Positions 5,227 through 48,448 are shown, counted from the stretch's first letter. The stretch is 64,000 nt of DNA from an uncultured Gemmataceae bacterium (GCA_963750165.1 CAVVPN010000001.1:416001-480000); one strand, 5' to 3'. Numbers and translations are program-made. Notes: a model not told the origin generated them from the letters alone.

Positions 5227-5712
5227 ATGCGCACCGTCCAGCAAGGCGACCAGGTCCAGGTCCATTTCGTGAAACGCTCGCAACGCGGCGAGGTTGTTTC
5301 CTCCCGCGGGCGTGCCCCGCTGGAACTGGAGGTCGGCAAGGAGAACCGCCGCCTGCCCGGCCTCGGCCTTGCCCTCGTGGGGATGAGCGCGGGGCAACAG
5401 GTGGTGGTGAGCGTGCCCGCCCAGCTGGCCTACGGCCCCCCCGGCCCCGCACGGCTCCGCCGGGTGGCACGCTCCCGGTTCACCCAGGACCGCGTCCTGA
5501 CTGTCGGCCGCTGGGTGCGAGTCACCAACCGCAACGGATCCCGCCGCCTGGTCCGCGTCGTGGAGGTCAACGACAACTCCGTCGTCATCGACACCAACCA
5601 CCGCTGGGCCGGGCAAGACGTGATCCTGGAAGTGGAAGTCCTGGCCATCCACACGCCGGCCCCGAGCGGCGCGGCGACCCCGCAAGCCGCCACCGAAGAA
5701 CTGCGGTCGTAA
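5227..5712 (+). CDS. slyD: FKBP-type peptidyl-prolyl isomerase, SlyD-like
   Basis: AGGAG RBS; GDQVQVHF...LPGLGLALVGM...AYG...IDTNHRWAGQDVILEVEV. Confidence 0.85.
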   Translation: MRTVQQGDQVQVHFVKRSQRGEVVSSRGRAPLELEVGKENRRLPGLGLALVGMSAGQQVVVSVPAQLAYGPPGPARLRRVARSRFTQDRVLTVGRWVRVTNRNGSRRLVRVVEVNDNSVVIDTNHRWAGQDVILEVEVLAIHTPAPSGAATPQAATEELRS

Positions 5713-5784
5713 GCCCGAGGGGCGATTACCACCCCAGCCCGACGCCCGAGAAGCCCTTCAACCCCAACGAGAAAGCAGGCCGTC

Positions 5785-6159
5785 ATGGCAGGCCGAGTCC
5801 TGAACCGCCGCGAGTTACGCAAGCAGTCGGACCAAGCCGAGCAGCAGCCCGAGTCCGCCGCCCCGGCAGCCGACGGGCCGGCCGAGGCGCCGCCCGAGAA
5901 GAAGGCCAGGGCGAAGCGGCCCGCGGCCGCGAAAGTGAGAAAGCCGCGCGCCAAGAAGGCGCCGCCCCGGATGCGCGCACGCTGGGGCGTGTTCGACGGG
6001 GCTATGAAGCAGGTCGCAGTCTTCGACTACAACCAACGTCCGGCCGCGGAGGCGAAGGTCGCGGAACTGCTCGGCGCAACAAGGGCACCCACTTTTTGCA
6101 GATCGTCAAGGACGAGATGCCCGAACCCGAACTGGCGGCGGCTCTCGCAGATTGAGTAA
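5785..6159 (+). CDS. Basic hypothetical protein, probable frameshift near 6078
   Basis: MAGRVLNRRELRKQ...WGVFDGAMKQVAVFDY; the tail KGTHFLQIVKDEM is in a shifted frame. Confidence 0.65.
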   Translation: MAGRVLNRRELRKQSDQAEQQPESAAPAADGPAEAPPEKKARAKRPAAAKVRKPRAKKAPPRMRARWGVFDGAMKQVAVFDYNQRPAAEAKVAELLGATRAPTFCRSSRTRCPNPNWRRLSQIE

Positions 6160-11180: not shown

Positions 11181-11228
11181 AACTTTCAGATTGTGGGTAA
11201 CTTTCAGATTATGGGAAACCTTCAGATT
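11181..11228. repeat. 18-bp-period direct repeat AACTTTCAGATT(G/A)TGGG, about 2.7 copies
   Basis: Units start at 11181, 11199 and 11217, between the integrase stop and the xis gene. Confidence 0.7.
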
Positions 11229-12697
11229 AACGATGCAGACACCATGGACCATCCACTTCCGGCCTGCGTCGCCGAACGGGTCGAGTTGCAGTCGTCGTGA
11301 TGGAGATGTGGTGGAGGTGCTGCGGCAGGAAAACAACAGGCGCCTCGATGCTACTCTACTCCTCCTCGCCCGCGTTCTGCTTAGACTTGGCAGTAGCCAG
11401 CGGCGTCGAGAACAGCCAAGCGTGAACGTGGTCTGCCACGGCCTTCAGCCGGACGTCGCTGATCGTCTCGCGGTAGGCGGTGGCCATGTGGGGCGACTCG
11501 TGCCCCATGATGAAATCGATGGCCGGCTGATCTTTCGACTCATCGGCCACGGTACGGAAGACGTGTCGCAGGGTGTAGAACCCGAGCCCGGCCCTGCCGT
11601 GGATGCCCAGTTGGCGGAGCAGCTTGCCGAACTCCTTCGCCAGCGTGTGGTCGGTGCTGTCCTTCGCCCACGGCAACCCGTACCTGGTGATGAACACCAG
11701 GCCCGCGTTGGCCTCGTCTTTGGGCCGGGGGCGTTTGGCCAGGGACTCTCTCAGGGCGGCGACCGTCTCGGGCCAGAGGTGGCAACGGCGGGGGATGCCC
11801 GTTTTCGGCCTCGGGTAGTCGATCCACCCGGATTCCACGTTGACCACCCGCAGCGGCAGCGTGCCCACGTCGGCGTTACCGTAGCCAGCGTTGACGCCGA
11901 GCAGGATCATAGCGCGGAGGTGGACCGTCGCGGCGCCCAGCAGTTTGTTGATTTCTTCAGTCGTGAACAGCTTCGGCCCCTTCCGGGCCCGGTCGATCCG
12001 CACCACTTTCCGCGACGGCCGCTTGAACGCCTGCCCGTAGCGCACCGGGCGGTCAACGAGCCCGTTGTCCGAGGCGTACTTCAGGACGACCCGGATACGC
12101 TGGATGACGTTGCCCAGAGTCACCGGCCCCCACTTCTTGGCCAGCTTCGCGCGGAGCTTCTCGAAGTCCTCGGGGTCCAGGTCTTCCACCAGGCGTGTCT
12201 TGGTGAAGTGGCTCACCAGCAGATCTGTGGCCGCTTTGTAGTCGTCCCAGGTGCGATGGGTGAGTTCGCCCGCGTCCCGGGCGTTCTCCTTGGCCTCCAA
12301 AAACTGGTTGACCAACTCCTTGATGGTGATGCCCTCCGTCGCCTCCCGCGGCTTCCGGCCGGTGTGCAAGGCGTCCTTTTGCTTCAGGTACTTCTCCAGG
12401 GCGCCGTCAGGGTCGGCCCACTTGCCGAAGTAGTGCAACTTGCCCCGAATCTTCTTGGCCCAATAGCCGGCGGCGTGCGCGAACAGGGGGAAGTCGGGGG
12501 AGGGCTTGGCGGGCTTGTCCCCGGCGGCCTGGGCGGCGGGACGAGGCTTGTCCACGGCGGCGCCTTTCAGAAACTGCTCGAACTCCAGGAGGGCGCCTTC
12601 GTGGTCGTCCCAACGGCCGAAGTAATACATCTTCCCCTTGATCTTCTTGGCCCAGCGCCCCGTGTCGTGGGCGAACAATGGGAAGTCGGGGTAAGGC

Positions 12698-14425
12698 GGG
12701 TGTACGACATGGTTTGAGTCAGACAGCCGCTGAGTAGCGTCGCTGCCCAGTTGCTGTTCTTTGCCGACGTTCCCAGAACTCGGTGAGGGGGTCGGTCGCG
12801 CTCAGGGTATCCGCCCGCAGTTGCAGGATCGCTTCCGCACCGCGCCCCGACCAGAACTTCTCCGTGCCTTTGACGCGCTGGTTGATCCGCTTGATGGTCG
12901 ATTCGATGTGGCTCGAGGTGATCGGTAGCCCCTGTTGGCGATACACCGCGTAGCGCATGCGCCCCTGCTGATTCCGCAAGAAGCTCAGAGCGTCGGCCAC
13001 CCGCTGCCGGGGGCTCGTCTCCGCTTCCCCCGGCTCGGGAAGCCCCACCGCGGCTTGCCGCTCGGCCAGGGCGCCAAGGACCGGCTCGATCTGCCCCGCC
13101 CACACCTGGCCGATCCACGCCGTGTACGCCGCCCAGCCCACCGCGAACGACCGGCCCGCCAGGGCGGCCGTGAAGACGTACGTCAAGGCGTGGATGAAAT
13201 CGACGACGGGCGTGAAGCTCGCGAAGTGCCGCTCCCAGATGCCCCAGTTGGTGTGCGAGCCGTCCGCCACGAAGGCCCGCCGCTCGGCCCCGTAGAAGCC
13301 CCGCGCCCAGGCGGCCTGCGCCAGCAGTTCGCCGAAGGGCTGCGCCTCCCGGGCGGTCGCCACCACGCTGCGCTGTTCCAGGGCCGGCGCCGTACCGGCC
13401 GCGGCCGCGGCGGCCGGGGTCGGCGGCGCCGTCACGTCCGCCTCCGTCACGCCGGCCGAGCCTTTGATCTCCCGCACCAGCTTGAGGATGCGCAGCGGAT
13501 CCACGAAGTGCGCGGGCAGTTCGGGGCACGGGTCCACGGCACCGGCCGTGCTGGTCATGGTCGCCAGCAAGCCCACCTTGTCCGCGCGCCAATGGCTCAC
13601 GGGCGTGGCGGGTGCCGCGGGAGCCGCCGCCGGGGTGGCCTGGCGGTCGAGGATCTGCAAGCGGCCGCCGTCGCACTGCACCACGGCCAGGGCTGGCGCG
13701 GCCACCCCGGGCGGCACGCCCTTGCGCTGGGGGAGCGGCAAACCCAGGTAGTCCGCGACGGCGGCGTCGCGCTCGGCGCAGCGCTCCTGGCCGATGCCTT
13801 GCGTGAGGCGCTCCACTTGCTTGGTGGGCACGTCGAGGTCGGCCAGGTGCCGCAAGGCCTGGCTGCCCTGGGCGAAGGAGGGGTGGTGCGTGCCCGCGTA
13901 GATCACGCGCCGCAGGACCGCCGGGGAGTACTGGCTCAGGTCAAGGCCCAGCCGCCGGGACTGAGGGAAAAAAAGACCGCCGGCAGCGCGGGCAGTAGCG
14001 GTGGGGTTCGAGCCATTGGGTGTGGCCGGCACGGGTCTGAACGACCCGCGGTTCGGGGTCGGCGGCCGCGGTCGGCTGTTGGCAGGACGGGCACACCTGG
14101 TCCGGGTCCGGCACCGATTGGGCCGCTTGCTGTTGTAGGGCCTGATCGAGGAGCTGGCGCGACACGGCCTGGCCGATCTGCACCGCCAGTTCTTCCAGGT
14201 CGCTGAACTGGGTTCCCCATTCCGGTCCCTGGGGGCCGTACACCCGATCCACGAAATGCTTGGCCACGCCCTGAATCAAATGGCGTAATTCAGCTACTTG
14301 TTTGGTAGCAATGGACTCGGCGGCCATCCCTGGCTCCTTTCAGGAGTTGCGGCCTTTGGTGAGTCGAACTTCCACTGCCAGTGTACACCAGGCGGCTGGC
14401 GGCTTGCAAACCATGTCGTACACCC
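12698..14425 (-). mobile_element. Insertion sequence, ISKra4/ISLre2-like (Mutator-related), 1728 bp
   Basis: Perfect 19-bp IRs GGGTGTACGACATGGTTTG; 9-bp target duplication GGGTAAGGC at 12689-12697 and 14426-14434. Confidence 0.92.
12719..14327 (-). CDS. DDE transposase in two overlapping ORFs, joined at a T7-CCC slippery site near 13970
   Basis: OrfA with CPSC/CPRC zinc motif ends ..RRSFFP; OrfB has CDGG, VADGS, VDFIHA and SSHIES motifs. Confidence 0.85.
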
Positions 14426-14670
14426 GGGTAAGGCTTGCTCGGCTTGGTGGACTTGCCGCCCTGTGCTGTCGTGGTAGAATGATCGCTGGACATGGTGACC
14501 TGCTCCTTAACCTGACGGGACGCGGTGTTTGGGCCGATGTGCTAGCATCAGATCGGCCAACTTTTCCGAGTTAAGGTGTAGGAAAATGGGTGTCAAGTGT
14601 AGTAGGGGTGTAACACCCGAGAGAGGATGAGGCAAAGAAATCGACGCAAACCAAACTAACTAAACTACTT

Positions 14671-14744
<74 letters not shown>

Positions 14745-14819
14745 CTACAATGCAAAGAGCCGCAGGTCTTGGACTTGCGGCTCTTCTCTTTGTTGGGACA
14801 ATCGCCGTTTCCCCACGAT

Positions 14820-14960
14820 TTGGGGATAATTTGGGGATAATCGCCGGGTGGCGTTGAGGCCGCGTTGGGGGCGGTGGCCGGCTTCCTGGATTTCATTGTC
14901 TGGACATTATGGTCGTTCGGACAGTCCGGCGGTGGCAGCTTGGGGATTTTTGGGGATAAA
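14820..14960. repeat. TTGGGGATAAT tandem arm-type sites (left arm)
   Basis: Pairs at 14820-14841 and (degenerate) 14940-14960; the same pair occurs at 20936-20957 and 48054-48075. Confidence 0.75.
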
Positions 14961-15620: not shown

Positions 15621-15705
15621 CGTTGTACCGCGTTGTACCGAAAATCCGGTTGACAACGGTTTGAGCGTCGCGTACTATTGGGTCGTGGTACAACACGGTA
15701 CAACA
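15621..15705 (+). promoter_or_regulatory. Sigma70-type promoter bracketed by inverted tandem operators
   Basis: TTGACA (15650) - 17 bp - TACTAT (15673); CGTTGTACCG x2 upstream and GGTACAACA x2 downstream. Confidence 0.8.
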
Positions 15706-15748
15706 TCTGGACCGGCCACACCCCTTTTCCCAGCCAGAGGAATGCAAC

Positions 15749-18031
15749 ATGGCAAACACGAATCGCGCAACCCTGAGTCGGGACCAGGCTCGTAAGAGCT
15801 ACTGCATCAAGTTTCGTCACCCGCGCCGCTTCACGGGCGATGGCAAGCCGGGCCTTGCAGTCCGGCGTGGCCTCGGCACCGACAACGAGGCCGAGGCCCA
15901 GCACCTCGTGGGCCAGATGAATCAGATCTTGGCGGACGAGTCCCTGTGGACGCCAACCGCCCGCGACGCGGCAAGCAAGCGTTTCCATCCGCGGATCGTC
16001 GAGGCATTCTATGACGGCCTCGGAGCTACTGCGCTCGACCCCCTCCAGGCTCGCGATCACGCTCTCCGGCTCCCTGGACTTGACGAAGGTTACAAGCGGA
16101 TGCTTCTCCTCGGTCCGAACGGGGCGGGCAAGACTACGCTCCTCCGCCAAATCCTCGGCACCAACCCTGAGACCGAACGCTTCCCCGCGACCTCGGCCAA
16201 CCGCACGACGACAGCGAAGGTCGAAGTGATCCTCGCTCCGGGCAAATACCAGGCCGTCGCCACGTTCCTCCAGCGAGACGAGGTTCGGCAGTACGTCGAG
16301 GAATGCGTCATTGAGGCCGCCCTTTCCCATCTCAGTGACGGCAGCCCCGACGAGGTGGCCCGTCGCTTGCTCGAACACCGCGACCAGAGGTTCCGCCTCA
16401 GCCACATCCTGGGGACGCTCCCGACCAAAACCTCGAAGTTCGTGAAGAGCTTCGATACTCCTGATGGGGACCGCACCCGACGCAAGGAAGCAGCTGCGGA
16501 GGAAGCCGACCCGCTCACCGAGGACGAACGCGAGGCGATGCGGAAAACTCTCCGGCGGTACATCGAGCGCATTCAGGCGATGACCGACGAGTGGCGAATG
16601 CGCACCAAGGAGACTGACGAAGAAATCGAGTCCGAAGAGATCAAGCAGCGGTTCGAGGAGCAACTTCCCAGCGAGACAGATTTCTCGCCGCTGATCGACG
16701 ACATCTGCGACGAGATCGCCCGGCGGTTTTCGCAGGTTTCGGGCGGCCAGACGGAATTCGACAAGGGCAAGTGGCCGACGCTCTGGCAGTTCTCGACCAG
16801 CGAGCGTGATGAGTTCATGAAGGTCATCAACCTGTTCACAGGGAACCACGAACGGCATTTTGGCCGCCTGCTGACTCCGCTCGTCGAGGGAATTCGTGTC
16901 GCCGGCCCGTTCCGTCCGCACTGGCGAGAAGGAAACGAAGTACCCCGCCTCGTCCTGATCGACGGCGAGGGGCTCGGCCACAAGGTCGAAGCGATCGCCA
17001 GCGTGCCCACGTCGGTTTCCCGGCGGTTTCGGGATGTCGATGTCATCCTGCTGGTCGATTCCGCCCGGCAGCCAATGCAGGCCGCTCCTTCCGTTGCCGT
17101 GAAGACCATCGCCGCTGCTGGCTACGAATCCAAACTGATGCTCTGCTTCACCCACCTCGATCTGGTTGAGGGGGACAACCTGCCTGACGATCAGGCGAAG
17201 ATGAACCACGTCCTCTACGCCCTAACGAACCTTCTCGACAAGGTGGGGCAGGACATCGACCGGGTCACGGAGGATGCGCTCGAACGGGTGCTGGAAGGCC
17301 GGGTCTTCTTTGCGGCTCACCTCAACAAGAAGGAGCTTCCCGACGAGGACGCCGTCACCCGGACCCACCTGAACAACATGCTGGACGCCATCGAAGCGAT
17401 CGAACAGCCCGACCCGACCGACGTTGAGCTTTTCTACGATGAGTTCAAGCTCCCTTTGGGACTTCGCGCGGCCCTGACGAGCTTCCACCAGACGTGGCGG
17501 GCGATTCTGGGTCTTGAGACCCAGCCGAACATTCCGAAGGAGCATTGGGCGCGGATCAAGGCTCTCACGCGGTATGTTGGCTTCCTCGGCAAGGATGAGT
17601 ATCAGCATCTGGAGCCTGCCGCCGATCTCGTGAAACGCCTGATCCAGCATTTAAGTCGTTACCTCGACCGACCTCTGCGCTGGGATCCGCCGAGTGCCGA
17701 CGAGCAGGTCAAACTGGCGGCCATCGCGCGGGTCAAGAACTTGGTACACACTGGGCTCCTCGACCTGGCCCGTGACTTGCTGATCGTCCAGCGGTCCACC
17801 GACTGGCAGGCCGCCTATGGCCTTTCCGGCACAGGCTCCACGGTCAAGCGTGCCCACGCGATTCGGTCCTTCTTCGAGGCATCCGCGCCGGTTCCTGATA
17901 ATCTCGACGGCATCGACGGTAAGGATTTCTCGCACATGATCAAGGACCTAGTCGGCGAGGCGGTCAAGGAAGTTGGTGGCCGTGTCGTCCAGTCACTGGA
18001 GGACGAGGAGAAGATGGCGGGCTCCTTGTAA
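15749..18031 (+). CDS. 760-aa protein: integrase-arm-like N-terminal DNA-binding domain fused to a dynamin-like P-loop GTPase
   Basis: N-terminal YCIKFRHP..GKPGLAVRRGLGTDNEAEA; G1 GPNGAGKT, G2 RTTT, G3 DGEG, G4 THLD; long helical insert and helical C-terminus. Confidence 0.8.
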   Translation: MANTNRATLSRDQARKSYCIKFRHPRRFTGDGKPGLAVRRGLGTDNEAEAQHLVGQMNQILADESLWTPTARDAASKRFHPRIVEAFYDGLGATALDPLQARDHALRLPGLDEGYKRMLLLGPNGAGKTTLLRQILGTNPETERFPATSANRTTTAKVEVILAPGKYQAVATFLQRDEVRQYVEECVIEAALSHLSDGSPDEVARRLLEHRDQRFRLSHILGTLPTKTSKFVKSFDTPDGDRTRRKEAAAEEADPLTEDEREAMRKTLRRYIERIQAMTDEWRMRTKETDEEIESEEIKQRFEEQLPSETDFSPLIDDICDEIARRFSQVSGGQTEFDKGKWPTLWQFSTSERDEFMKVINLFTGNHERHFGRLLTPLVEGIRVAGPFRPHWREGNEVPRLVLIDGEGLGHKVEAIASVPTSVSRRFRDVDVILLVDSARQPMQAAPSVAVKTIAAAGYESKLMLCFTHLDLVEGDNLPDDQAKMNHVLYALTNLLDKVGQDIDRVTEDALERVLEGRVFFAAHLNKKELPDEDAVTRTHLNNMLDAIEAIEQPDPTDVELFYDEFKLPLGLRAALTSFHQTWRAILGLETQPNIPKEHWARIKALTRYVGFLGKDEYQHLEPAADLVKRLIQHLSRYLDRPLRWDPPSADEQVKLAAIARVKNLVHTGLLDLARDLLIVQRSTDWQAAYGLSGTGSTVKRAHAIRSFFEASAPVPDNLDGIDGKDFSHMIKDLVGEAVKEVGGRVVQSLEDEEKMAGSL

Positions 18032-18140: not shown

Positions 18141-19289
18141 TTACCACGGCACGAAATAAGATCAAATCAATTCTACCGGGGCAGCGTACCGAGTCCACGG
18201 ATGTAGAAAGTAACTTATCACATGATCCGGCACCCGAACCAAGCGTTTCATGAAGTCCAACAACCGGCCCTGCAACGTCGGCCGGTCGGGCGGCAGGCCC
18301 GCCTCGTTCACCGTACCCTTCATGTCGTTGTTCAAATACTCCACTGGGTTCAACTCCGGCGAATACGCCGGCAGATAAAACACCTCGATCTGGTCCCGGT
18401 GCGCCTCCACCCAGGCCTGTACCGCCGGCGTCTTGTGGGCTTGCAGCCGATCCGCGATCAGCAGCATCTTCCGCGTCGCCCCTGCGATCAGCTTGGTCAA
18501 GAACATCAGGAACACCGCCGCGTCGAGCGCGCCCTGGTAAGTCATGAACCGTACCGTCCCCTCGTTGCTGATGGCCGAAATCTGGTTGACCCGGAGGTGG
18601 GGCTTAGGCACCTCCATCGTCGCGCGTGCTCCGAGGCGGGCGTAGCCGTAACCGGGGTGGTGATCGGCCGCCACGCCGACCTCATCGGTCCACAGAATTT
18701 CCGCCTGCTCGCGCTCAGCCTGGGCTTCGATGGCGGGGTAGGTTTCCAGCAACCACTCCTCGACCGCGTCGGGATCCTGCTGCCGCGCGTGCCGGCTCGG
18801 TTTCTTGGAGGTGTAACCCCAGCGGCGCAAGTACGCGCCGACGGTGCGCTCGGCCAGGTCGATGCCGAACTCCTGGCGGATCAGGTCGCGCACGGCGCGG
18901 CGCGTCCACAAGGCGTGCGGGATGCCCACTTCCTCCGGGGAGTGCAGGTCGATGCACGCCCGGATGCGCTCGGCCTGCGGGTCGGACAAGTAGCGCCCGG
19001 AACCGAGCGGCCGGCCGCTGCGACCGCCGGGCAGGGCAGACAGGCCGTCGGCGACGTAGGCCGTCCACCAGCGACTGATGGTTTCGTGGCAGACGCCCAG
19101 GAGTTCGGCGAGATCCAACTCGGAGTAGCCCAACTCGATCCCCCGTAAGGCGCGCAGACGCAGCACCTGGAGGGCTTCATCCGACAACTGGCGGGCGTCA
19201 GGTAACTGGATGGACATGAGCAGTCTCCGTCTCGGAGTGTCGCGGTTATTCTCCCAACGGACTTTTGAGCAACTTTCATGCCGTGGTAA
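18141..19289 (-). mobile_element. IS630-family element
   Basis: IRs TTACCACGGCA(C/T)GAAA; TA duplicated at 18139-40 and 19290-91. Confidence 0.93.
18162..19217 (-). CDS. IS630-family transposase
   Basis: HTH, WTDE, IADRLQAH, LPAYSPELNPVE. Confidence 0.95.
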   Translation of the reverse strand: MSIQLPDARQLSDEALQVLRLRALRGIELGYSELDLAELLGVCHETISRWWTAYVADGLSALPGGRSGRPLGSGRYLSDPQAERIRACIDLHSPEEVGIPHALWTRRAVRDLIRQEFGIDLAERTVGAYLRRWGYTSKKPSRHARQQDPDAVEEWLLETYPAIEAQAEREQAEILWTDEVGVAADHHPGYGYARLGARATMEVPKPHLRVNQISAISNEGTVRFMTYQGALDAAVFLMFLTKLIAGATRKMLLIADRLQAHKTPAVQAWVEAHRDQIEVFYLPAYSPELNPVEYLNNDMKGTVNEAGLPPDRPTLQGRLLDFMKRLVRVPDHVISYFLHPWTRYAAPVELI

Positions 19290-19291
19290 TA

Positions 19292-19566
19292 TCTTGAAAC
19301 GATTGGACCGTTTGGAGGCCATGCTCGTCACCCTCGTCGAGCGCCAGACGGTGCGGGAGTGGTATACGACTGAACAGTTCGCTCAACTCGTGGGCAAAGC
19401 CGAGTTCACGGTCAGGGAGTGGTGCCGGCACGGCCGCATCTCCGCGGAGAAGCGGAACTCGGGCCGGGGGGCCCATCCGACCTGGGTGATTTCCCACGGG
19501 GAATACCTCCGCTGGCAGAGGGAGGGTTTACTGCCCGCCACTGGACGAGGAATGGCTTCTGTGTGA
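19292..19566 (+). CDS. Excisionase/HTH protein; 5' end abuts the IS630
   Basis: WYTTEQFAQLVGKAEFTVREWCRHGRISAEK; convergent with the integrase. Confidence 0.8.
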
Positions 19567-19604: not shown

Positions 19605-20921
19605 TCAGGCAAACACCCCCATCATCGCCTGGTGCTTCACGTCCGGGTACAAATGGCGGTAGCGCCGCCGCTGCTCCTCGGTGCAGTGGCCCACCAGTTC
19701 GTCAATGATGCGCTGGTCCACGCCCTTGCTCGCCAGCGCCGAGATGAACGAATGCCGGAAGACGTGCCAGCCCTTGAGCACGCTCCACTGGGAGAGCCTG
19801 AGTCCCCGCTGGAAGTAATTGTGTGCTTCCCGCGGCAAGATCTCCTTGCCGTCATCCTTGCAGAAGAGCGTTTTGCCCCTGGCCCGGACCGACAGCCAGG
19901 CCGCGAGCACTTCCTTGAGAAACGGCGTCACCGGTACCCGGCGAGTCGTTAGCTTGCGCTTGTCACGCTTCTTCTCGCGAATCGTCACCACGTCGGCAGC
20001 CAGGTCCACGTCGGAGGGCAGCGCCCGCACGACCTCCGACCGCCTGGCGCCGGTGTAAGCGGCGAAGACGAACATCGGGTACACCCAGGGACTGACCGGC
20101 CGGGCCTTCACCCACTCCAGCAACCGACTGACCTCCTCGGGCCGCAGGTATACCGAATCCCAGACCGTCTCCGGCTCGTCGCCAGCGGCGATGCGCCGCT
20201 CGGCCTCCTCCCAGGTCATGAAGGGCAGGCTTTCTTCGACCTTGGCGTAGTCAAGCCCGCCGCCGGGAAACTCCTCGGCCAGGTTCAGCTGTCGCCGGGC
20301 CCAGTTCCAGGCCGTGCGCAGCGAGATGATCTCCTTCTTAATCGTGGCCGACGACGGGTGGCGTTTCGGCCGTTCGGGTGCCTCGACCGGCTTGGGCGGC
20401 GCGTTCTTGCGGACGTATTTCCGTTTCGGCTTGGCCAGAGCCGCCTTCTCCCGCCGTTTGCGGCGGTACGCCTCGGGGTCGATCCACTCCCCGGCGCGCT
20501 TGTCCACGTAGCGCTGCAGGTCGGGCCGGCTCACCAACGGGATGACGCTACCGGCGCCGAGGATGCGCTCCAGGTGGTCGAAATGTAGCCGAATGCCATC
20601 GAGCGTCGTCTGCTCCAGCTTCTTCTCCTGCGACTTGAAATACGCCACCCGCAGTTCGGCGAGCGTCAACTCTTTCCGCTCGGCCGCGACGGCTGCCATC
20701 TGCTCCGGCGGCTTGCCGCGGTGGAACATGAAGTCCTCGATCGGGCAGCCGGCAGGGATGTCGAGCAAATTCCGCTTGAGCAGGCGCAGCAATTCCTCAG
20801 TCGAAACTTTGTAGACCGCCGCATCAGCGGCGCTCACCTCGCCGACGGAGAAGGCCCGCTTCTCATTCTTCCAGTAGAAAAGCACCCGCCAGCTGCCGTT
20901 TCGATTTTCGATCGAGGCCAT
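19605..20921 (-). CDS. Tyrosine integrase (intact)
   Basis: TGARRSE, EKKR, WHVFRHSF, VGH and RYRH catalytic motifs; start lies next to the att arm repeats. Confidence 0.93.
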   Translation of the reverse strand: MASIENRNGSWRVLFYWKNEKRAFSVGEVSAADAAVYKVSTEELLRLLKRNLLDIPAGCPIEDFMFHRGKPPEQMAAVAAERKELTLAELRVAYFKSQEKKLEQTTLDGIRLHFDHLERILGAGSVIPLVSRPDLQRYVDKRAGEWIDPEAYRRKRREKAALAKPKRKYVRKNAPPKPVEAPERPKRHPSSATIKKEIISLRTAWNWARRQLNLAEEFPGGGLDYAKVEESLPFMTWEEAERRIAAGDEPETVWDSVYLRPEEVSRLLEWVKARPVSPWVYPMFVFAAYTGARRSEVVRALPSDVDLAADVVTIREKKRDKRKLTTRRVPVTPFLKEVLAAWLSVRARGKTLFCKDDGKEILPREAHNYFQRGLRLSQWSVLKGWHVFRHSFISALASKGVDQRIIDELVGHCTEEQRRRYRHLYPDVKHQAMMGVFA

Positions 20922-20935
20922 GCCGCACCTGGGTC

Positions 20936-21095
20936 TTGGGGATAATTTGGGGATAATGTTGGTCAACGCGACCGCTATACGATTCTATCGTATTGAACGC
21001 TGCAAACGGCGCAAAGTTCTGAAAAAATTGGAATTGCGATGCGAATGCAACGCTGCTGAAATGCTGCAAAAGTCGTCGAGCCCTGGACTGTCGAT
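20936..21095. other. Internal att arm with 11-bp core GGACTGTCGAT (21085-21095)
   Basis: Homologous to 48054-48214 (arm pair, TCAACGCGA, GCGAATGCAAC, CCTGGACTGTCGAT) but not followed by the tRNA 3' half. Confidence 0.8.
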
Positions 21096-21387
21096 GAGGT
21101 GGGGCTTTCTTAAGACCGTCCCGATAAGACTCTTAAAATAAAAGACTTATGGCCGCGTTATGCCGACTAAAGCAAATGGCGTGCCAGCGATCCAAGCCAA
21201 AGGGCAGAGCACCGGATAATTTGCCTGGTAGCGTCAGTAATTCTCAGCCCATCACAGACCTCGTTGACTCATGCTGCGGCGGCGTGTCGGACCTCCGCGC
21301 GCTGGGCCCTTCGGCTTGCGCGCGCAGGTGGTTGGGACCGAAGCAGGTTAGTGGTTGCAGATACAGATAGGCATAATGTGGCTTGGC

Positions 21388-21519
21388 GGTGCGGCGGCCG
21401 CGCGCGAGGAGTGCCCCGAGGAGCAACCGGGCGAAGCGGGCGGCGCAGCGCGGGTCGAGCAGAGCCGCCAGGCGGAGAAACCAGTGGCCAAGCGGGGGTG
21501 TTGGTTGCGAGGATGTCAT
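21388..21519 (-). pseudogene. N-terminal transposase remnant (IS701/IS4-like)
   Basis: MTSSQP..WFLRLAALLDPRCAARFARLLLGALLARGRRT, then an abrupt end. Confidence 0.55.
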
Positions 21520-22831: not shown

Positions 22832-23569
22832 TCAATCCACGGGGACTTTCACTTGCCAAGTCAGGCCGGTGTTCGTATCTCGGATAACGAGTGTTGCCGT
22901 TCCCGTGCCGCGATTGCTTGGACTGGTGTTCGCCAACTCGCTGTTCAGAGCGCCGACGGGGTCATTATTGGTATCTGACGCTGAGAGGGATTGGCCATTA
23001 ATGCTAAGGATCGTGTCGCCTGGTTCCAGGCCTAATGATTCTGCTTGGGAGCCTTGCGGCACCGATTGGACAGCCACACCATCATCACTCGGAGCAAATC
23101 CACCACCCAAGGGCGAAAATGCTGGTTTCACCGTGTTGGGGCGAACTCCCTTCGGCTGAACCACATTTGGACGCACCTTGTTCGGCTGAACCGGTTGCGG
23201 CTTGACCCCGTTCGGGCGGACCCCATTCGGCCTCACCGTGTTTGGGCGAACCCCATTCGGCCGCACCGCCTGCGGCCGCACCGCCTGCGGCCGCACCGCC
23301 TGCGGCCGCACCGCCTGCGGCCGCACCGCCTGCGGCCGCACCGCCTGCGGCCGCACCGCCTGCGGCCGCACCGCCTGCGGCCGCACCGCCTGCGGCCGCA
23401 CCGCCTGCGGCCGCACCGCCTGCGGCCGCACCGTCGCCGGCCGCACCGAAGTCGTCCGAACTCCGTGCTGGGCCGCTTCCGTCTCCAGGGAAGTCAACAA
23501 GCTACCCCCGCCGAGGAGGAAACAAAAAATCGCGTCCTTCCAAAAACCGCTAAATTTGATGGACAACAT
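22832..23569 (-). CDS. Secreted pentapeptide-repeat (VRPQA) protein with C-terminal PDZ domain
   Basis: Signal-peptide-like N-terminus; about 23 VxPxx units; GVAVQSVPQGSQAESLGLEPGDTILSING PDZ signature. Confidence 0.75.
   Translation of the reverse strand: MLSIKFSGFWKDAIFCFLLGGGSLLTSLETEAAQHGVRTTSVRPATVRPQAVRPQAVRPQAVRPQAVRPQAVRPQAVRPQAVRPQAVRPQAVRPQAVRPQAVRPNGVRPNTVRPNGVRPNGVKPQPVQPNKVRPNVVQPKGVRPNTVKPAFSPLGGGFAPSDDGVAVQSVPQGSQAESLGLEPGDTILSINGQSLSASDTNNDPVGALNSELANTSPSNRGTGTATLVIRDTNTGLTWQVKVPVD
23259..23423. repeat. 15-bp perfect tandem repeat GGCCGCACCGCCTGC x11
   Basis: Counted directly; degenerate units on both flanks. Confidence 0.97.
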
Positions 23570-23858
23570 AATGTTTTTCCTTTTCGACAGTTGAGCAAGT
23601 AAAGGCAATGAGACTGCCGCCTCTCACTACCTCCTGCAAGGCTAATGTTTGTTGTGTTGTTTGTCCCACACCTCGCGGTTGCATCAGCGAAACGCCAGCG
23701 TTCAGGTGCCCGGACGTCAGGGTCGTGGGCACGGCCCACGCCTCCAGTTGCCCCAGCGCCGGTTGACACCCCCGTTAACCGGCCCCCGGTGGGTGGTACA
23801 ATCCTGCGCCTACCAACAGGAGCCGGGAGGTAAATCCCGGCCCCGCGCTGGGGTCGCC

Positions 23859-39167: not shown

Positions 39168-42100
39168 TTACCCCAACCCATAAAGGGTCAGGGCTCCCCA
39201 TACCGTTGGGTCAGCGTGCGTTGTCCGCGAATGCAATTGGGCAGCGCGAAGCGCATCCCTGCTCGACTGCCCCTCCACTAACCTCCGGTAGAACTCCCCT
39301 AGCAACTCCCTCCGGGCCTCGTCCGGCACCGGCCACGACGCCGTCACCACTGCCCGCGCCCCGGCCACCACGAAGGCCCGCGGCAAGCCCACCGCGCCCA
39401 CCTCGGCCCCCGGTTCCTCCACCGGCAGGCTTGCGGACAGCACGACCACCTCGGTCTGCCCCAGTGCGATGGCGGTGACATCCCACGCCGTCAACCGTCC
39501 TTCCGAGGCGTCCTGGTTCGCGTTCGCCAGGGCCAGGCCTATTCGGCTCAACGGATTCTCCCACGCCGCCGGTCTCACCGTTGCCGGTGCCGTCTCCTTC
39601 GGGGGGACGGTTTCGCTCGCCGCCTCTCCCACGGCGAAAGCGTGCGTCGCCAGATGCAGAACGCGCGGCGCACCGCACTCCACCAACCGCGACTTCGCCG
39701 CCTCTCCGTCCACCCAGGCGCGCACGCCGAGCACCTTGGCGATTTGCTCGGCCTCCGCGCGCGTCCCGGGCAGGGCAGTGAAACGCAGCCGCGCGACGGC
39801 ACTGGGGCACTGGTTCGGAACTCGATCAGACTGATAAAAGCCAAGCTTAATCAGGCGCAGAACCGCTGTCCACAGCCGACTCCACAATTTTCTCCCCGAT
39901 TGCTGCAATGGCTCAACCGCGTCGTGCCGCTGTGGCGTCACCGGGCCGAAATCCGCAGCGCCAATGACCACGGCCGCCCCAGCTTCCCCCTCCGCCGGCA
40001 CCGTCCGTAGCAGGTCGCGGCCGGTATACACCTGGCTAATCGTGTAACGGTCGATGAGATAGCCGCCGTCCTCCGTCGGCAGGAGGTTGAAGGGCACGCG
40101 GTGCAGTTCGCTGTCGGGTGCCAGCACCAACCTTTGACAGCCGTCCAGGGCCGGTATCAGCCTGTCAAAGACCACAGAGCGCAGGGCCGAACCCTGCACT
40201 CGCAGAGCCGCCGTGCGCTCCGGTCCCGCCACGCTGGTCAACACACGGCGGTAGTCGGTCACCAGACGGTCGATGATCTCCGCCGAACCGAGGTCGATCA
40301 GCCGCACTGCATCGGGACGACCTGCCGGCAGCACGAACGCCAGGTAACGGGCCGGCGGCCGCGGTGCCTCGGCCTGCGTGAACAGTGTCCGGAAGTCCCA
40401 ATCCGGCGAGCGGACGAACTCGACCAAGACGCTCCCCTCCGGCAGAGCTGCCGCAACCGTCCGCCGGTCTGCAGTCCGCAGCCGCCGCCCAACGGCCAAC
40501 TCCGGCACCCGTTCGGCCAACTCCGCCTCCAGACTTTCCGCTCGTGTTTCCCAGTCCTCCAGCAAGCGCTGGTGCGTCACCTGACCTTCCGCCCCCGGAC
40601 CATTGCGGCGCCGAACCAACGCTTGGCGACGCAGCCAGTACAGGCTGCGTCAGCCGCTCCGCCTGGGCCGGGTGCTTCGCCTCCATCACTGTTTTGCGAC
40701 AGGCCGACAGCAACTCGACCCAAAGCGACTTGCGCCGCAGCACCACGTCGAAAACCTTGCCCGCCGCCTCAGGCGTGTCGGCCAGGCGCCGCGCGACCAG
40801 CGACAGGTACGTCTCGTAACGGATGTTCAGACCCTGCCCGCAGCTGGCTCGCGATTTACCGGAGTGCAGGGCCAACAGAGAAGGCAATAAGGCGTCGTCG
40901 AGGGCGGCCAACTGCTCCAACAGCGTCACCGCTTCCGCCTCCCGTCCCGTGGTCGCACACAGTCCCGCAAGCAGGTGCAAACTGACGGCGAAATCCGGAT
41001 GCTCTTGCCCCATCGCCGTCCGCTCCAGACGCAATGTCTGCCGCAGCAGTGGTTCCGCCGTCGCGATCTGCCCCTGGCTGAGGGAGACCTGGGCCAGCCC
41101 CTTCAACAGCGGCGCGTGCAGCCGACCCTCTTCGGGAGCCGACCGCCGCACCATCTGCAGCGCCTCCCGGTAGGTTGCCTCCGCCGCCCGGAAATCGCGC
41201 CGTGTCCACTCGTGGTCGCCACGCAGCTGCAGCGCGCCCGCCAGAACCGGGTGATCCTCCGGACACAGCCGCCGCAGCACCTCCAGGTGCTGCCGGACGT
41301 ACGGCTCGGCCGCCCGCCCGTCGCCGTAATTGACGTACAGATCGGCCAGGACGCGCAAACCGTCGGCGTACTCGATGTGATCCTTGCCCAAGGCCTTGCG
41401 CAGGATCGCCAAGGCCTGCTGGCAGTGGGCCTCGGCCTCCTGCCGCCGGTCCAGCGTCCATTTCAGCCCCGCCAGTTCGGTCAGCCAGCGGGCCAGGACC
41501 GGCTGGTTCGGGCCGTGGGCCGCCTGGAGGATGTCCAACGCCTGTTGGTACAACGGCTCCGCCCGCTCGTACCGTTCTGTGGCATGGTACAGTCTGGCCA
41601 GCGCGATCAGGTAGAACGCCGTGTCTGGGTGGTCGTCTCCGCGTAGTGCCTGGATCACTTCAACGGCCTGGCGGAGCAACGGCTCAGCCTGCGCCGGCTC
41701 TCCCAGTGCGTGGTATGTTAGCGCCAGGTTCATGTGGTCGGCGGCATGGAGGGGGTGGCCTTCGCCCGGCGTGGTCTGGGCGGCTTCCAGCACGTGGCGC
41801 AACAACGGTTCAGCCGCCAGGTGGTCGCCGACGGCAGCGTACAGTCGGGCGAGGTCGCTCGTTATTGGTATCAGGGGAGCTTCGTTACCCCTGAAAACCT
41901 TGCGGCCCAACTCCAGCGTCCTCCGCAACCCCGCCTCCGCCCGCTCGAAGTTGCCCCGGTCCTGGTAGACAAGGGCCTGCGTCCACGTGCTGCGGACGTA
42001 GCCGAGCGACTCCTCGCCTCCAACGGCGCGGAACACCTCCACAGCCTGATGGGACAGCGACTCGGCCTCGTCGAGCCGGCCCGCGAGGCGACACCACTCT

Positions 42101-48053: not shown

Positions 48054-48251
<198 letters not shown>

Positions 48252-48448
48252 GTAAGTGCAAGAGCCGCAAGTAGTTGCGGCTCTTGCCGTTTTTACACTT
48301 CGTCGCAACCGAGTGGATTTCACAGGATTTCACAGAAACGGGGCGAAACAGGCCAACTCTCGTACTGCGTGCGAGGGGGACTTCAGGCCCGTTGTCGGGC
48401 AACTGGCGGTCGCTGACCTTGACGCACCGGCACCCCAGCAGCGCAACG

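Follow-up and report, generated by a model that had tools for sequence, protein, structure and literature searches.

The GTPase gene and its operator-promoter region

The window analyzed here is a stretch of 64,000 nucleotides (nt) from an uncultured Gemmataceae bacterium (GCA_963750165.1, CAVVPN010000001.1:416001-480000), in which a small mobile element located at a tRNA-Asp gene carries a gene for a large GTPase of predicted dynamin type, single-copy in its own genome. The open reading frame (ORF) of this gene (15749..18031, + strand, ATG start) encodes a protein of 760 residues, composed of a predicted DNA-binding head, a dynamin-superfamily GTPase domain and a helical C-terminal part. Upstream of the ORF lies a sigma-70-type promoter (TTGACA-17 nt-TACTAT, 15650..15678, + strand) with 10 of the 12 consensus positions, placed between two pairs of short repeats. 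The upstream pair is formed by two direct copies of CGTTGTACCG on the + strand (15621-15630 and 15631-15640, with cores at 15622 and 15632) and ends 10 nt before the -35 box. The downstream pair is formed by two copies of GGTACAACA, that is, GTTGTACC on the - strand (15687-15695 and 15697-15705). It starts 8 nt after the -10 box, and the expected transcript start falls within it. Together, the two pairs make up an 18-nt inverted repeat, 94% complementary and 47 nt apart. The original prediction, made from the sequence of the window, of a promoter flanked by inverted repeat pairs was borne out by this arrangement of two direct sites before and two inverted sites after a near-consensus promoter.

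The core GTTGTACC is found five times in the 64-kb window, where 0.61 copies are expected, and none of 100 shuffles gave five. Four of the five cores are located at the promoter of the GTPase gene and the fifth at 41547. The formation of an RNA hairpin by the inverted pairs was considered and rejected, because the upstream pair precedes the -35 box and is thus not transcribed.

In order to compare the upstream regions of homologs, start codons were placed in 77 of the 80 genome loci (L018, L026 and L034 have no N-terminal match). One locus with 10 bases upstream (L043) was left out, and the remaining 76 loci plus the window give the count of 77. Sites were counted as GTTGTTCC with up to one mismatch within 150 nt upstream of the start. 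Exactly two forward sites followed by two reverse sites were found in 55 of the 77 genome loci, and at least one site in 76. In the metagenomes, the same layout is present in 23 of 40 distinct loci (at least one site in 37), and in the viral contigs of IMG/VR in 14 of 15 distinct loci. Upstream of the gene, the sites reach a density of 24.4 per kb, compared with 0.885 per kb elsewhere in the loci. Their spacing also shows high conservation. In 54 of the 55 loci, for each pair, the two sites of a pair are 10-11 nt apart, and the inner gap between the pairs ranges from 32 to 53 nt with a mode of 44. The sequence TTGAC follows the second site at 6-10 nt in 49 of the 55 loci, and the full promoter (TTGACn-15 to 19-TAnnnT) is found in 39, with 0-15 nt (mode 7) between its end and the first reverse site. 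Whether homologs have similar upstream repeats, a check proposed with the original prediction, is therefore answered positively in all three sets of loci, and sequence comparison indicates that the repeats form an operator which is conserved together with the GTPase gene across phyla.

The exceptions to this layout are mostly variants rather than absences. For instance, two loci scored as site-less (L102 and L107) contain four GTGTTCC sites at the matching places, three others (L073, L143 and L145) carry degenerate sites, and in L042 the full set is located farther upstream of the called start. No sites were found upstream of the gene in L103 and L066. In L107 and in L025, a contig of 2.7 kb from the bin of a Nitrosopumilaceae archaeon, all four sites have the same direction instead of two plus two inverted, and the geometry is thus not absolutely fixed. 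In a plasmid of Azospirillum sp. TSH58 (L149, NZ_CP022368.1), two forward and three reverse exact GTTGTTCC sites (5557-5647) are followed by a DUF4258 gene (5659-5937), which sits between the operator-promoter unit and the GTPase gene. In this case, the cassette took in a second gene.

The window itself differs from the usual site by one base in all four copies, with A for T at core position 6. This base is found in 8 of the 220 sites of the 55 loci, and four of the eight are those of the window. The second strand of the head reads IKF in the window and VIF in most of the family. The possibility that the sites are arm sites of the element's integrase was ruled out, because they accompany the GTPase gene into integrase-free loci, and because the likely arm sites of this enzyme are the TTGGGGATAAT pairs near both ends of the element.

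Within a genome, the exact tandem pattern hardly occurs outside the promoter of the gene. The window's own genome (9.6 Mb) contains three occurrences, two of them at the GTPase promoter. The third, a tandem GTTGTACC pair with a spacer of 3 (G000:C11:2166788-2166806, locus L087 1489-1507), lies ~25 nt before an unrelated gene of the opposite strand, which starts with a signal-peptide-like stretch. It may be due to chance (~0.05 expected, by our own estimate) or represent a second target. In five other genomes (3.1-7.4 Mb) 10 exact tandems were found, nine at the promoter of the homolog and one extra in G347. In the six genomes together, 11 of the 13 exact tandem sites are placed at the gene's own promoter, and the reversed-pattern control gave 0 and 1 occurrences. 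A dispersed repeat or a miniature inverted-repeat transposable element was ruled out as the source of the sites, since single sites elsewhere (0.885 per kb) are close to the chance rate (~0.76 per kb, our own estimate) and the tandems are nearly unique per genome.

Several natural relatives do not have the head. Of the 150 representatives listed, ~33 have their start near position 95-113 of the query, and in seven of these head-less forms, checked by eye, a Met is located a few residues before the conserved R-D-x-x-L-P-L-P. Paired sites were found in none of the six head-less copies with upstream DNA (L026, L127, L129, L141, L147 and L148), scanned for 200-700 nt before the gene. These regions show only single stray sites, at -278, -178 and -489. 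Two of the six (L147 and L148) are Rhodococcus plasmid copies, each of them the last in a series of small genes and not behind its own promoter. N-terminal extensions of 158 residues (L129) and of 57 residues starting with MALEIFIDESGYTGE (L141) gave no Pfam match at E 1e-5. In one relative of 934 residues (P0246), a Swt1-type HEPN domain (HEPN_Swt1, E 8.3e-28) takes the place of the head. Since the operator is conserved with the gene and is missing from the natural head-less copies, self-regulation is the best reading, and the self-repression through the head that had been proposed earlier appears to be well supported by this comparison.

The predicted fold of the GTPase and of its head

The protein belongs to a large family, of which 2,434 clusters passed an E-value threshold of 0.001 among 8,000 candidates scored. 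Its members are mostly of 745-775 residues and share ~40% identity across 97-99% of their length. In a 50%-identity library, 1,107 representatives passed the same threshold, and 367 passed 1e-30. The names of the members in their sources are diverse ("EcfA2," "ABC-type dipeptide transport ATPase," "GTPase Era," "SAR1 family," "SRP receptor beta," or none) and are likely mislabels which reflect the P-loop only.

The residues G122, G125, G127, K128, T129, T130, T154, D405, G408, H411, T468 and H469 are kept in 30 aligned sequences, and D471 in at least 90% of them. The G1 motif or P-loop, GPNGAGKTT (GxxGxGKTT, residues 122-130, 16112..16138, + strand), has G122, G125, G127, K128, T129 and T130 invariant in the 30 sequences. 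The G3 motif DGEG (residues 405-408, 16961..16972, + strand) is placed at the end of strand 401-405 with D405 and G408 invariant. The G4-like motif THLD (residues 468-471, 17150..17161, + strand) is placed at the end of strand 463-468 with T468 and H469 invariant, and keeps the Thr and the Asp of [NT]KxD, the Lys being replaced by an invariant His. The motifs named in the original prediction, both these and the FRHP and RRGLGT-D/N-x-x-EA of the head, are present and conserved in the family.

All structural statements rest on predicted models. The AlphaFold2 model of the whole protein, based on the alignment of the 30 sequences, has a predicted local distance difference test score (pLDDT) of 84.6 and a predicted template modeling score (pTM) of 0.84. 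In the Foldseek search against the PDB, the top 10 rows are dynamin-like, with SynDLP (E 3.4e-7), DynA, MxB, BDLP, IniA and Fzo1 among the best. The first 47 ranks are nearly all dynamin-like or related GTPases and include no chain of the ABC or structural maintenance of chromosomes (SMC) type. Re-scoring of Foldseek's top 1000 with VIA-align gave Z 18.5 for Fzo1, 18.3 for MFN2, 17.5 for DynA, 17.4 for SynDLP, 16.9 for IniA and 16.7 for BDLP, with 220-331 residues aligned for the dynamin-like chains. A small ribosomal GTPase scores Z 14.1 with 163 residues aligned, versus Z 16.5-18.5 and 220-274 residues for the dynamin-like G domains. In the predicted model, the GTPase domain covers residues 110-555 (16076..17413, + strand; 220-274 residues aligned), and the C-terminal helical part (residues 556-760, 17414..18028, + strand) aligns to the trunk helices of BDLP and IniA. 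Specifically, BDLP (2j69_A) is aligned for 331 residues over model positions 112-737 and IniA (6j72) for 331 over 113-744. These alignments reach residues 737-744 at a root-mean-square deviation (rmsd) of 6.5-8.2, and helices occupy 565-760. No hydrophobic or membrane segment was found, the best 19-residue Kyte-Doolittle mean being 1.07.

Searches of the whole protein against Pfam, NCBIfam, PADLOC and PDB sequences gave only sub-threshold NTPase matches centered on the P-loop, including ABC_tran, RsgA, AAA_23, AAA_16, mad3, LmuB and PtuA. The matches of ABC_tran, of the NCBIfam ABC models and of the PDB sequences are confined to residues about 111-165. Those of AAA_23 (119-305), AAA_16 and mad3 (117-298) extend into an insert of the G domain and stay under their cut-offs. 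Three features weigh against a dynamin assignment. Pfam Dynamin_N (PF00350) did not match the window protein at E 0.1, an insert of ~200 residues (176-378) in the G domain has no counterpart in the solved dynamin-like chains, and the change of Lys to His in G4 makes the nucleotide used less certain. Dynamin_N is found below threshold in three relatives (P0200, P0172 and P0236; E 9e-4 to 1e-2). By its predicted fold, the body is a large GTPase that falls in the dynamin superfamily, where the mitofusin/BDLP kind comes nearest to it. The dynamin-like GTPase of the original prediction is thus borne out by the Foldseek and VIA-align comparisons of the model, with G1, G3 and the THxD of G4 invariant or nearly so.

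The head (residues 1-100, 15749..16048, + strand) is predicted to contain strands at 8-11, 18-28 and 34-41, a helix at 47-62 and two further helices. Folded alone (pLDDT 79.2), it gives the same sheet-plus-helix as in the whole model. The predicted three-stranded antiparallel sheet against the following helix is the shape of arm-binding and AP2 domains. Among 48,161 chains compared with the head by VIA-align, lambda Int (1z1b_A) was matched at Z 4.2 (rmsd 2.3, 51 residues, 18% identity), the nuclear magnetic resonance complex of lambda Int with P'2 DNA (2wcc) at Z 3.7, and two AP2-DNA complexes at Z 4.2 (7wq5) and 3.7 (6sy0). The structural score of the head against arm domains is within the range of common small folds.

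Respective signals in the sequences are faint. DUF6538, which we take to be an N-terminal domain of integrases, is touched by 20 of 65 heads (best E 0.0019, below the cut-off), phrog_1 ("integrase") is touched by five, and the weak BFVD rows of the head include integrases at ranks 14, 26 and 42. In the genome of the window, the best match of DUF6538 is to residues 56-86 of a tyrosine recombinase of 403 residues (L081; Phage_integrase E 3.1e-21). In this protein, NRALGTDDEREA aligns to RRGLGTDNEAEA of the head over 27 columns with 37% identity (hhalign E 0.0024, probability 12%), and the motif R-x-LGT-D-x-x-EA is common to the two N-termini. Only two proteins with N-termini of this L081 kind were found. 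A profile of the 65 heads matched no PDB sequence at E up to 10. With hhalign, the head profile gave nothing against the N-termini of the two integrases of the window and of the L053 integrase, and the DUF6538 search of five proteobacterial genomes with the gene gave nothing over the cut-off.

Three results weigh against a common origin of the head and the arm domains. The N-domains of enolases outscore lambda Int (Z 5-6.5), Foldseek of the head gave nothing at E 0.001 or better in the PDB or BFVD, and no Pfam arm-binding family is among the 16 families matched by any of the 65 heads at E up to 1. The case for relating the head to the arm domains of integrases is thus weak. In its predicted form, the head is arm-like in shape and motif and not a shown member of the arm domains. 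The likeness to an arm domain, as first noticed, stands for the three-strand-plus-helix shape and for the motif, and is weak for homology (Z 4.2, sub-threshold DUF6538 and phrog_1, and a match of 27 columns).

Distribution of the gene, its neighbors and the mobile element

The gene occurs at no less than 334 places among 185,579 species genomes, and the titles of the 80 kept loci name a dozen or more phyla. It was not found in the 300 other genomes of the phylum or in the 40 closer relatives that were searched. Cultured Proteobacteria with a copy include Solimonas aquatica DSM 25927, Mizugakiibacter sediminis skMP5 and Rubellimicrobium mesophilum DSM 19309, and plasmids of Caballeronia and Azospirillum also have one. 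It was also found on 11 of 72,556 plasmids and on 18 IMG/VR contigs, with no match among 50,697 phage records. A search for expression data gave four runs with at most 0.09 of the words, and no such data were obtained for the locus.

No conserved partner gene was found in an all-against-all comparison of 4,295 flanking ORFs. The largest real cluster is present in 6 of 77 loci, and the large clusters of the flanks are shadow ORFs inside the GTPase gene. For the neighboring genes, Pfam was searched with the two nearest ORFs of at least 90 residues per side (230 ORFs from 66 loci), taken as the longest non-overlapping ORFs, which is a crude call. The ORFs were sorted by us from the Pfam names as defense or mobility types, with no background rate. 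By this sorting, at least 27 of the 66 loci have such a neighbor. The types include restriction-modification (RM) methylases and nucleases, McrBC, GmrSD, Mrr, AbiEi/Eii, ParE/Phd, HepT and SMODS with S_4TM, as well as Pycsar-type TIR, Schlafen-AlbA, SNF2-PLD helicases, integrases and transposases; cyclic-oligonucleotide-based antiphage signaling (CBASS), toxin-antitoxin (TA) and abortive infection (Abi) are among the classes. Two findings count against a role in defense. The other 39 of the 66 loci have no recognizable neighbor of either type, some neighbors being plain metabolic or housekeeping genes, and PADLOC gave 11 matches at E up to 1, all on the P-loop only, with no defense model matched beyond it. 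The check for defense islands, also suggested at the outset, gave a context that fits defense. A defense role is plausible at somewhat under even odds, with housekeeping of the membrane or of the element as its main rival.

In the window, the target of the element's insertion is a tRNA-Asp (GTC) gene found with ARAGORN (14671..14745, + strand). An 11-bp core, GGACTGTCGAT, obtained from the longest words shared between 14650-14900 and 20850-21500, is located in the anticodon arm of the tRNA (14700..14710) and again at 21085..21095, and these copies are the likely left and right junctions of a 6.4-kb element. Near its left end there is a tandem of two TTGGGGATAAT (14820..14841), of which an identical 22-mer is found at 20936-20957. 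These pairs are likely the arm-type sites of the element's own integrase and are unlike the GTTGTACC sites. The tyrosine integrase (19605..20966, - strand) has its true start probably at the ATG at 20921. Between the GTPase gene and the excisionase and integrase genes lies an IS630-type transposase ORF (18162..19331, - strand; DDE_3 E 7e-33, HTH_33), and an excisionase-like HTH_17 ORF (19210..19566, + strand) was matched at E 9.8e-6, just under the cut-off. The GTPase gene, first described as the only intact cargo, is the sole cargo of the 6.4-kb element that is not related to mobility. The element also holds the IS630-type transposase ORF, which is apparently whole, and the excisionase-like ORF.

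The 6.4-kb element may be the first part of a larger composite insertion of 33.5 kb borne by the same tRNA. This is suggested because a copy of the 3' half of the tRNA-Asp (51 bp with one mismatch to 14697-14747) lies 33.5 kb downstream (48202..48252, + strand), at what would be the far junction. The 33.5-kb stretch holds CHAT-TPR, WD40, TPR_10/12 and Ser/Thr kinase genes. Pentapeptide repeats (AVRPQ and variants) are encoded by at least 15 tandem copies of a 15-bp unit (23129-23488) in an ORF of 258 residues (22832-23608, - strand), whose product has a hydrophobic stretch at its N-terminus and a PDZ domain at its C-terminus.

On the other side of the tRNA-Asp, a second integrase ORF (11356-12678, - strand) contains an internal duplication of 108 nt (12398-12505 and 12590-12697, 76% identity), which doubles the N-terminal motif GRWAKKI(K/R)GK..YFG(R/K)W.D, that is, an arm-like head. 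Tandem repeats of 18 bp (11181-11216) are placed just beyond the stop of this ORF. Between this integrase and the tRNA-Asp, a transposase ORF of the ISKra4 family (12719-14032, - strand; E 1.2e-40, which does not reach the curated cut-off) and a DUF6431-like ORF (13941-14327, - strand) form a second layer of mobile DNA.

Proposed mode of action, alternatives and related systems

The reading that we prefer, with a rough probability of 0.55, is that of a self-contained mobile cassette, in which an autoregulated, soluble dynamin-type GTPase with a predicted DNA-binding head likely acts as a stand-alone conflict module. It builds on what the computation showed, namely the family and its predicted fold, the promoter-operator layout, the loss of this layout where the head is missing, and sites that are nearly unique in a genome. 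The cassette would consist of one sigma-70 promoter, four operator sites and one gene, which would move horizontally as a unit. We infer that the head recognizes GTTGTWCC, that its binding represses, and that an oligomer bridges the operator. Each tandem pair would take up two heads in head-to-tail order, spaced by one helical turn and on the same face of the helix. The two pairs would point towards each other with the -35 and -10 boxes between them, the downstream pair covering the transcript start. Both pairs could be held at once, since the inner sites are about five turns apart from center to center (mode 52 bp; 55 in the window), and binding would repress because the downstream pair covers the start site. 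An oligomer at both pairs would thus close the promoter from which it is expressed, so that the amount of protein stays low and constant whatever the host. The working part would be the GTPase body, which occurs both head-less and with a HEPN head. It would act as a stand-alone module against phages or other mobile elements, on integrative elements, plasmids and defense islands. The conflict module is favored because the distribution is sporadic, mobile and island-borne, the head can be swapped, even for HEPN, and the self-control is tight. The defense role and the way the GTPase acts are the least certain parts, and a feedback of the GTP-driven assembly state of the body on repression is speculative. 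Two points weigh against the proposal as a whole: the position of the sites alone does not separate a repressor from an activator, and no experiments on binding, repression, GTPase activity or phage were found in the literature for any member.

A bolder form of the preferred reading, which is tentative and on balance doubtful, sees a single-gene immune module in which a dynamin-type mechano-GTPase is its own transcription factor. Resting oligomers would clamp both pairs, and assembly on a structure of the invader or on the membrane would empty the operator, whereupon the promoter would fire in an amplifying loop. Such a host-independent unit would account for function from Planctomycetes to Proteobacteria, Actinomycetes and Cyanobacteria. 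The clade of the window would then represent a switch of specificity, with four GTTGTACC sites and IKF in strand 2 versus the usual VIF.

The most serious alternative, which is nevertheless rather unlikely, keeps the self-regulation and assigns the GTPase to the service of the mobile element or the cell, in membrane repair or remodeling, DNA or replisome handling, or maintenance of the element. Solved relatives such as DynA remodel membranes, and CrfC, a dynamin homolog of Escherichia coli, has reportedly been proposed to handle DNA or the replisome. The absence of defense and mobility types among the four nearest ORFs in 39 of 66 loci, the 11 plasmid copies and the lack of PADLOC matches beyond the P-loop are in line with such a role. 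On the contrary, the protein has no hydrophobic or membrane segment (best 19-residue mean 1.07), its distribution is very sporadic (0 of 300 and 0 of 40 genomes), a HEPN-headed variant exists, and RM, TA, Abi, CBASS and McrBC neighbors are frequent. It is less probable still that the four sites are no operator of self-repression and serve activation through positive feedback, or bind another factor of the host or the element. The head is a putative DNA binder with a weak link to known ones, and the upstream pair occupies the position of a class I/II activator. The downstream pair, however, is at the position of a repressor, 0-15 nt after the -10 box (mode 7, 8 in the window; 39 loci). In addition, no other protein accompanies the sites across a dozen phyla, none of the six head-less copies has paired sites, and a promoter already near the consensus needs no activator.

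The DNA sensing of the original prediction, by which the head would recognize invading DNA with such repeats and switch on the GTPase, was not borne out and is now very improbable. Sensors among defense proteins are commonly built as an NTPase with a DNA-binding head, and one extra tandem site is found in the genome of the window and one in G347. Nevertheless, the head is dispensable and swappable (~33 of the 150 representatives start near residue 100, and one protein carries HEPN_Swt1), 11 of the 13 exact tandem sites in six genomes belong to the gene's own promoter, and a fixed 8-mer, easily lost by an invader, would make a poor sensor. The least credible of the alternatives is an ATPase of the ABC/SMC type, with the dynamin likeness as an artefact of the model. 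It would agree with the best sequence matches (ABC_tran, AAA_23, mad3, LmuB and PtuA, near or below the cut-offs), with the ABC-like look of the window's P-loop GPNGAGKTT and with the sources that call relatives EcfA2 or ABC ATPase. Most of these matches, however, span just 20-50 residues around the P-loop, the longer ones (AAA_23, AAA_16 and mad3) remaining sub-cut-off; the fold matches listed include no chain of the ABC or SMC type, while the dynamin-like chains have Z 16-18, and DxxG and T-H-x-D are placed at strand ends, as are G3 and G4.

Among known proteins, BDLP, DynA, SynDLP, IniA and Fzo1/MFN1/2 share with the window protein the predicted large GTPase fold (Z 16.5-18.5) and the G1, G3 and G4-like motifs, and its helical part may correspond to the BDLP and IniA trunk. 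It differs from these bacterial dynamins and mitofusins in the lack of a Dynamin_N match, in a G4 of THxD instead of [NT]KxD, in the 200-residue insert of the G domain and in that no hydrophobic paddle or membrane segment is seen. It further has the predicted DNA-binding head and a private operator, and we know of no described dynamin with either. In the literature searched, no account of the family or of a DNA-binding dynamin was found. The tandem arm sites of lambda P' are direct repeats one helical turn apart, as are the putative sites of the head. The arm domains of integrases (lambda Int and Tn916 Int) and AP2 domains have the sheet-on-helix that is predicted for the head. The TTGGGGATAAT pairs of the element's own integrase are likewise tandem and resemble the geometry of the GTPase operator. 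Unlike the arm domains, the head is placed on a GTPase and not on a recombinase, its sites flank a promoter and not an att core, and there is no sequence-family match. In defense genes controlled by WYL/BrxR or CapW, a tight promoter-proximal repressor keeps a possibly costly gene low. There, the repressor is a separate protein, whereas here the putative repressor domain is fused to the effector.

Two described groups of GTPases are also comparable in part. The Eleos systems (LeoA / LeoBC) comprise dynamin-like GTPases next to defense systems, and their P-loop mutants lose defense (Millman et al. preprint, 10.1101/2022.05.11.491447). In the parts of their description considered, they consist of two adjacent dynamin-like genes with no mention of a DNA-binding head or operator, versus one gene in the family here. 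None of the PADLOC Leo models matched the window protein at E up to 1, and no conserved neighbor was found. The DO-GTPase or GAP1 systems are TRAFAC-class GTPases with variable N-terminal add-ons and are predicted to be conflict systems (Kaur et al. 2020, PMC7159879). In the parts of that account considered, they have a GAP1 partner gene and often two paralogous GTPases with zinc ribbons, in contrast to the dynamin-like fold with no partner and no zinc ribbon described here. As for a GAP1 partner, no neighbor cluster exceeds 6 of 77 loci and no such Pfam family is listed for the protein.

Dynamin-like GTPases are known in both bacterial and animal antiviral defense, where sensing and action are unclear, and all bacterial ones described have no DNA-binding part. 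With thousands of members, effector and putative repressor in one chain and a small, precisely defined operator, the family is a candidate for a one-gene defense system. Even if the function proves ordinary, a large family of "hypothetical proteins," now mislabeled as ABC or EcfA ATPases, has been named and delimited. The compact promoter-operator pair, kept across a dozen or more phyla, may be of interest for broad-host-range gene control. Through the fusion, the level of the effector, and perhaps its assembly state, would be read out directly at its own promoter, and transcription may serve in this family as a natural readout of a dynamin's assembly or nucleotide state.

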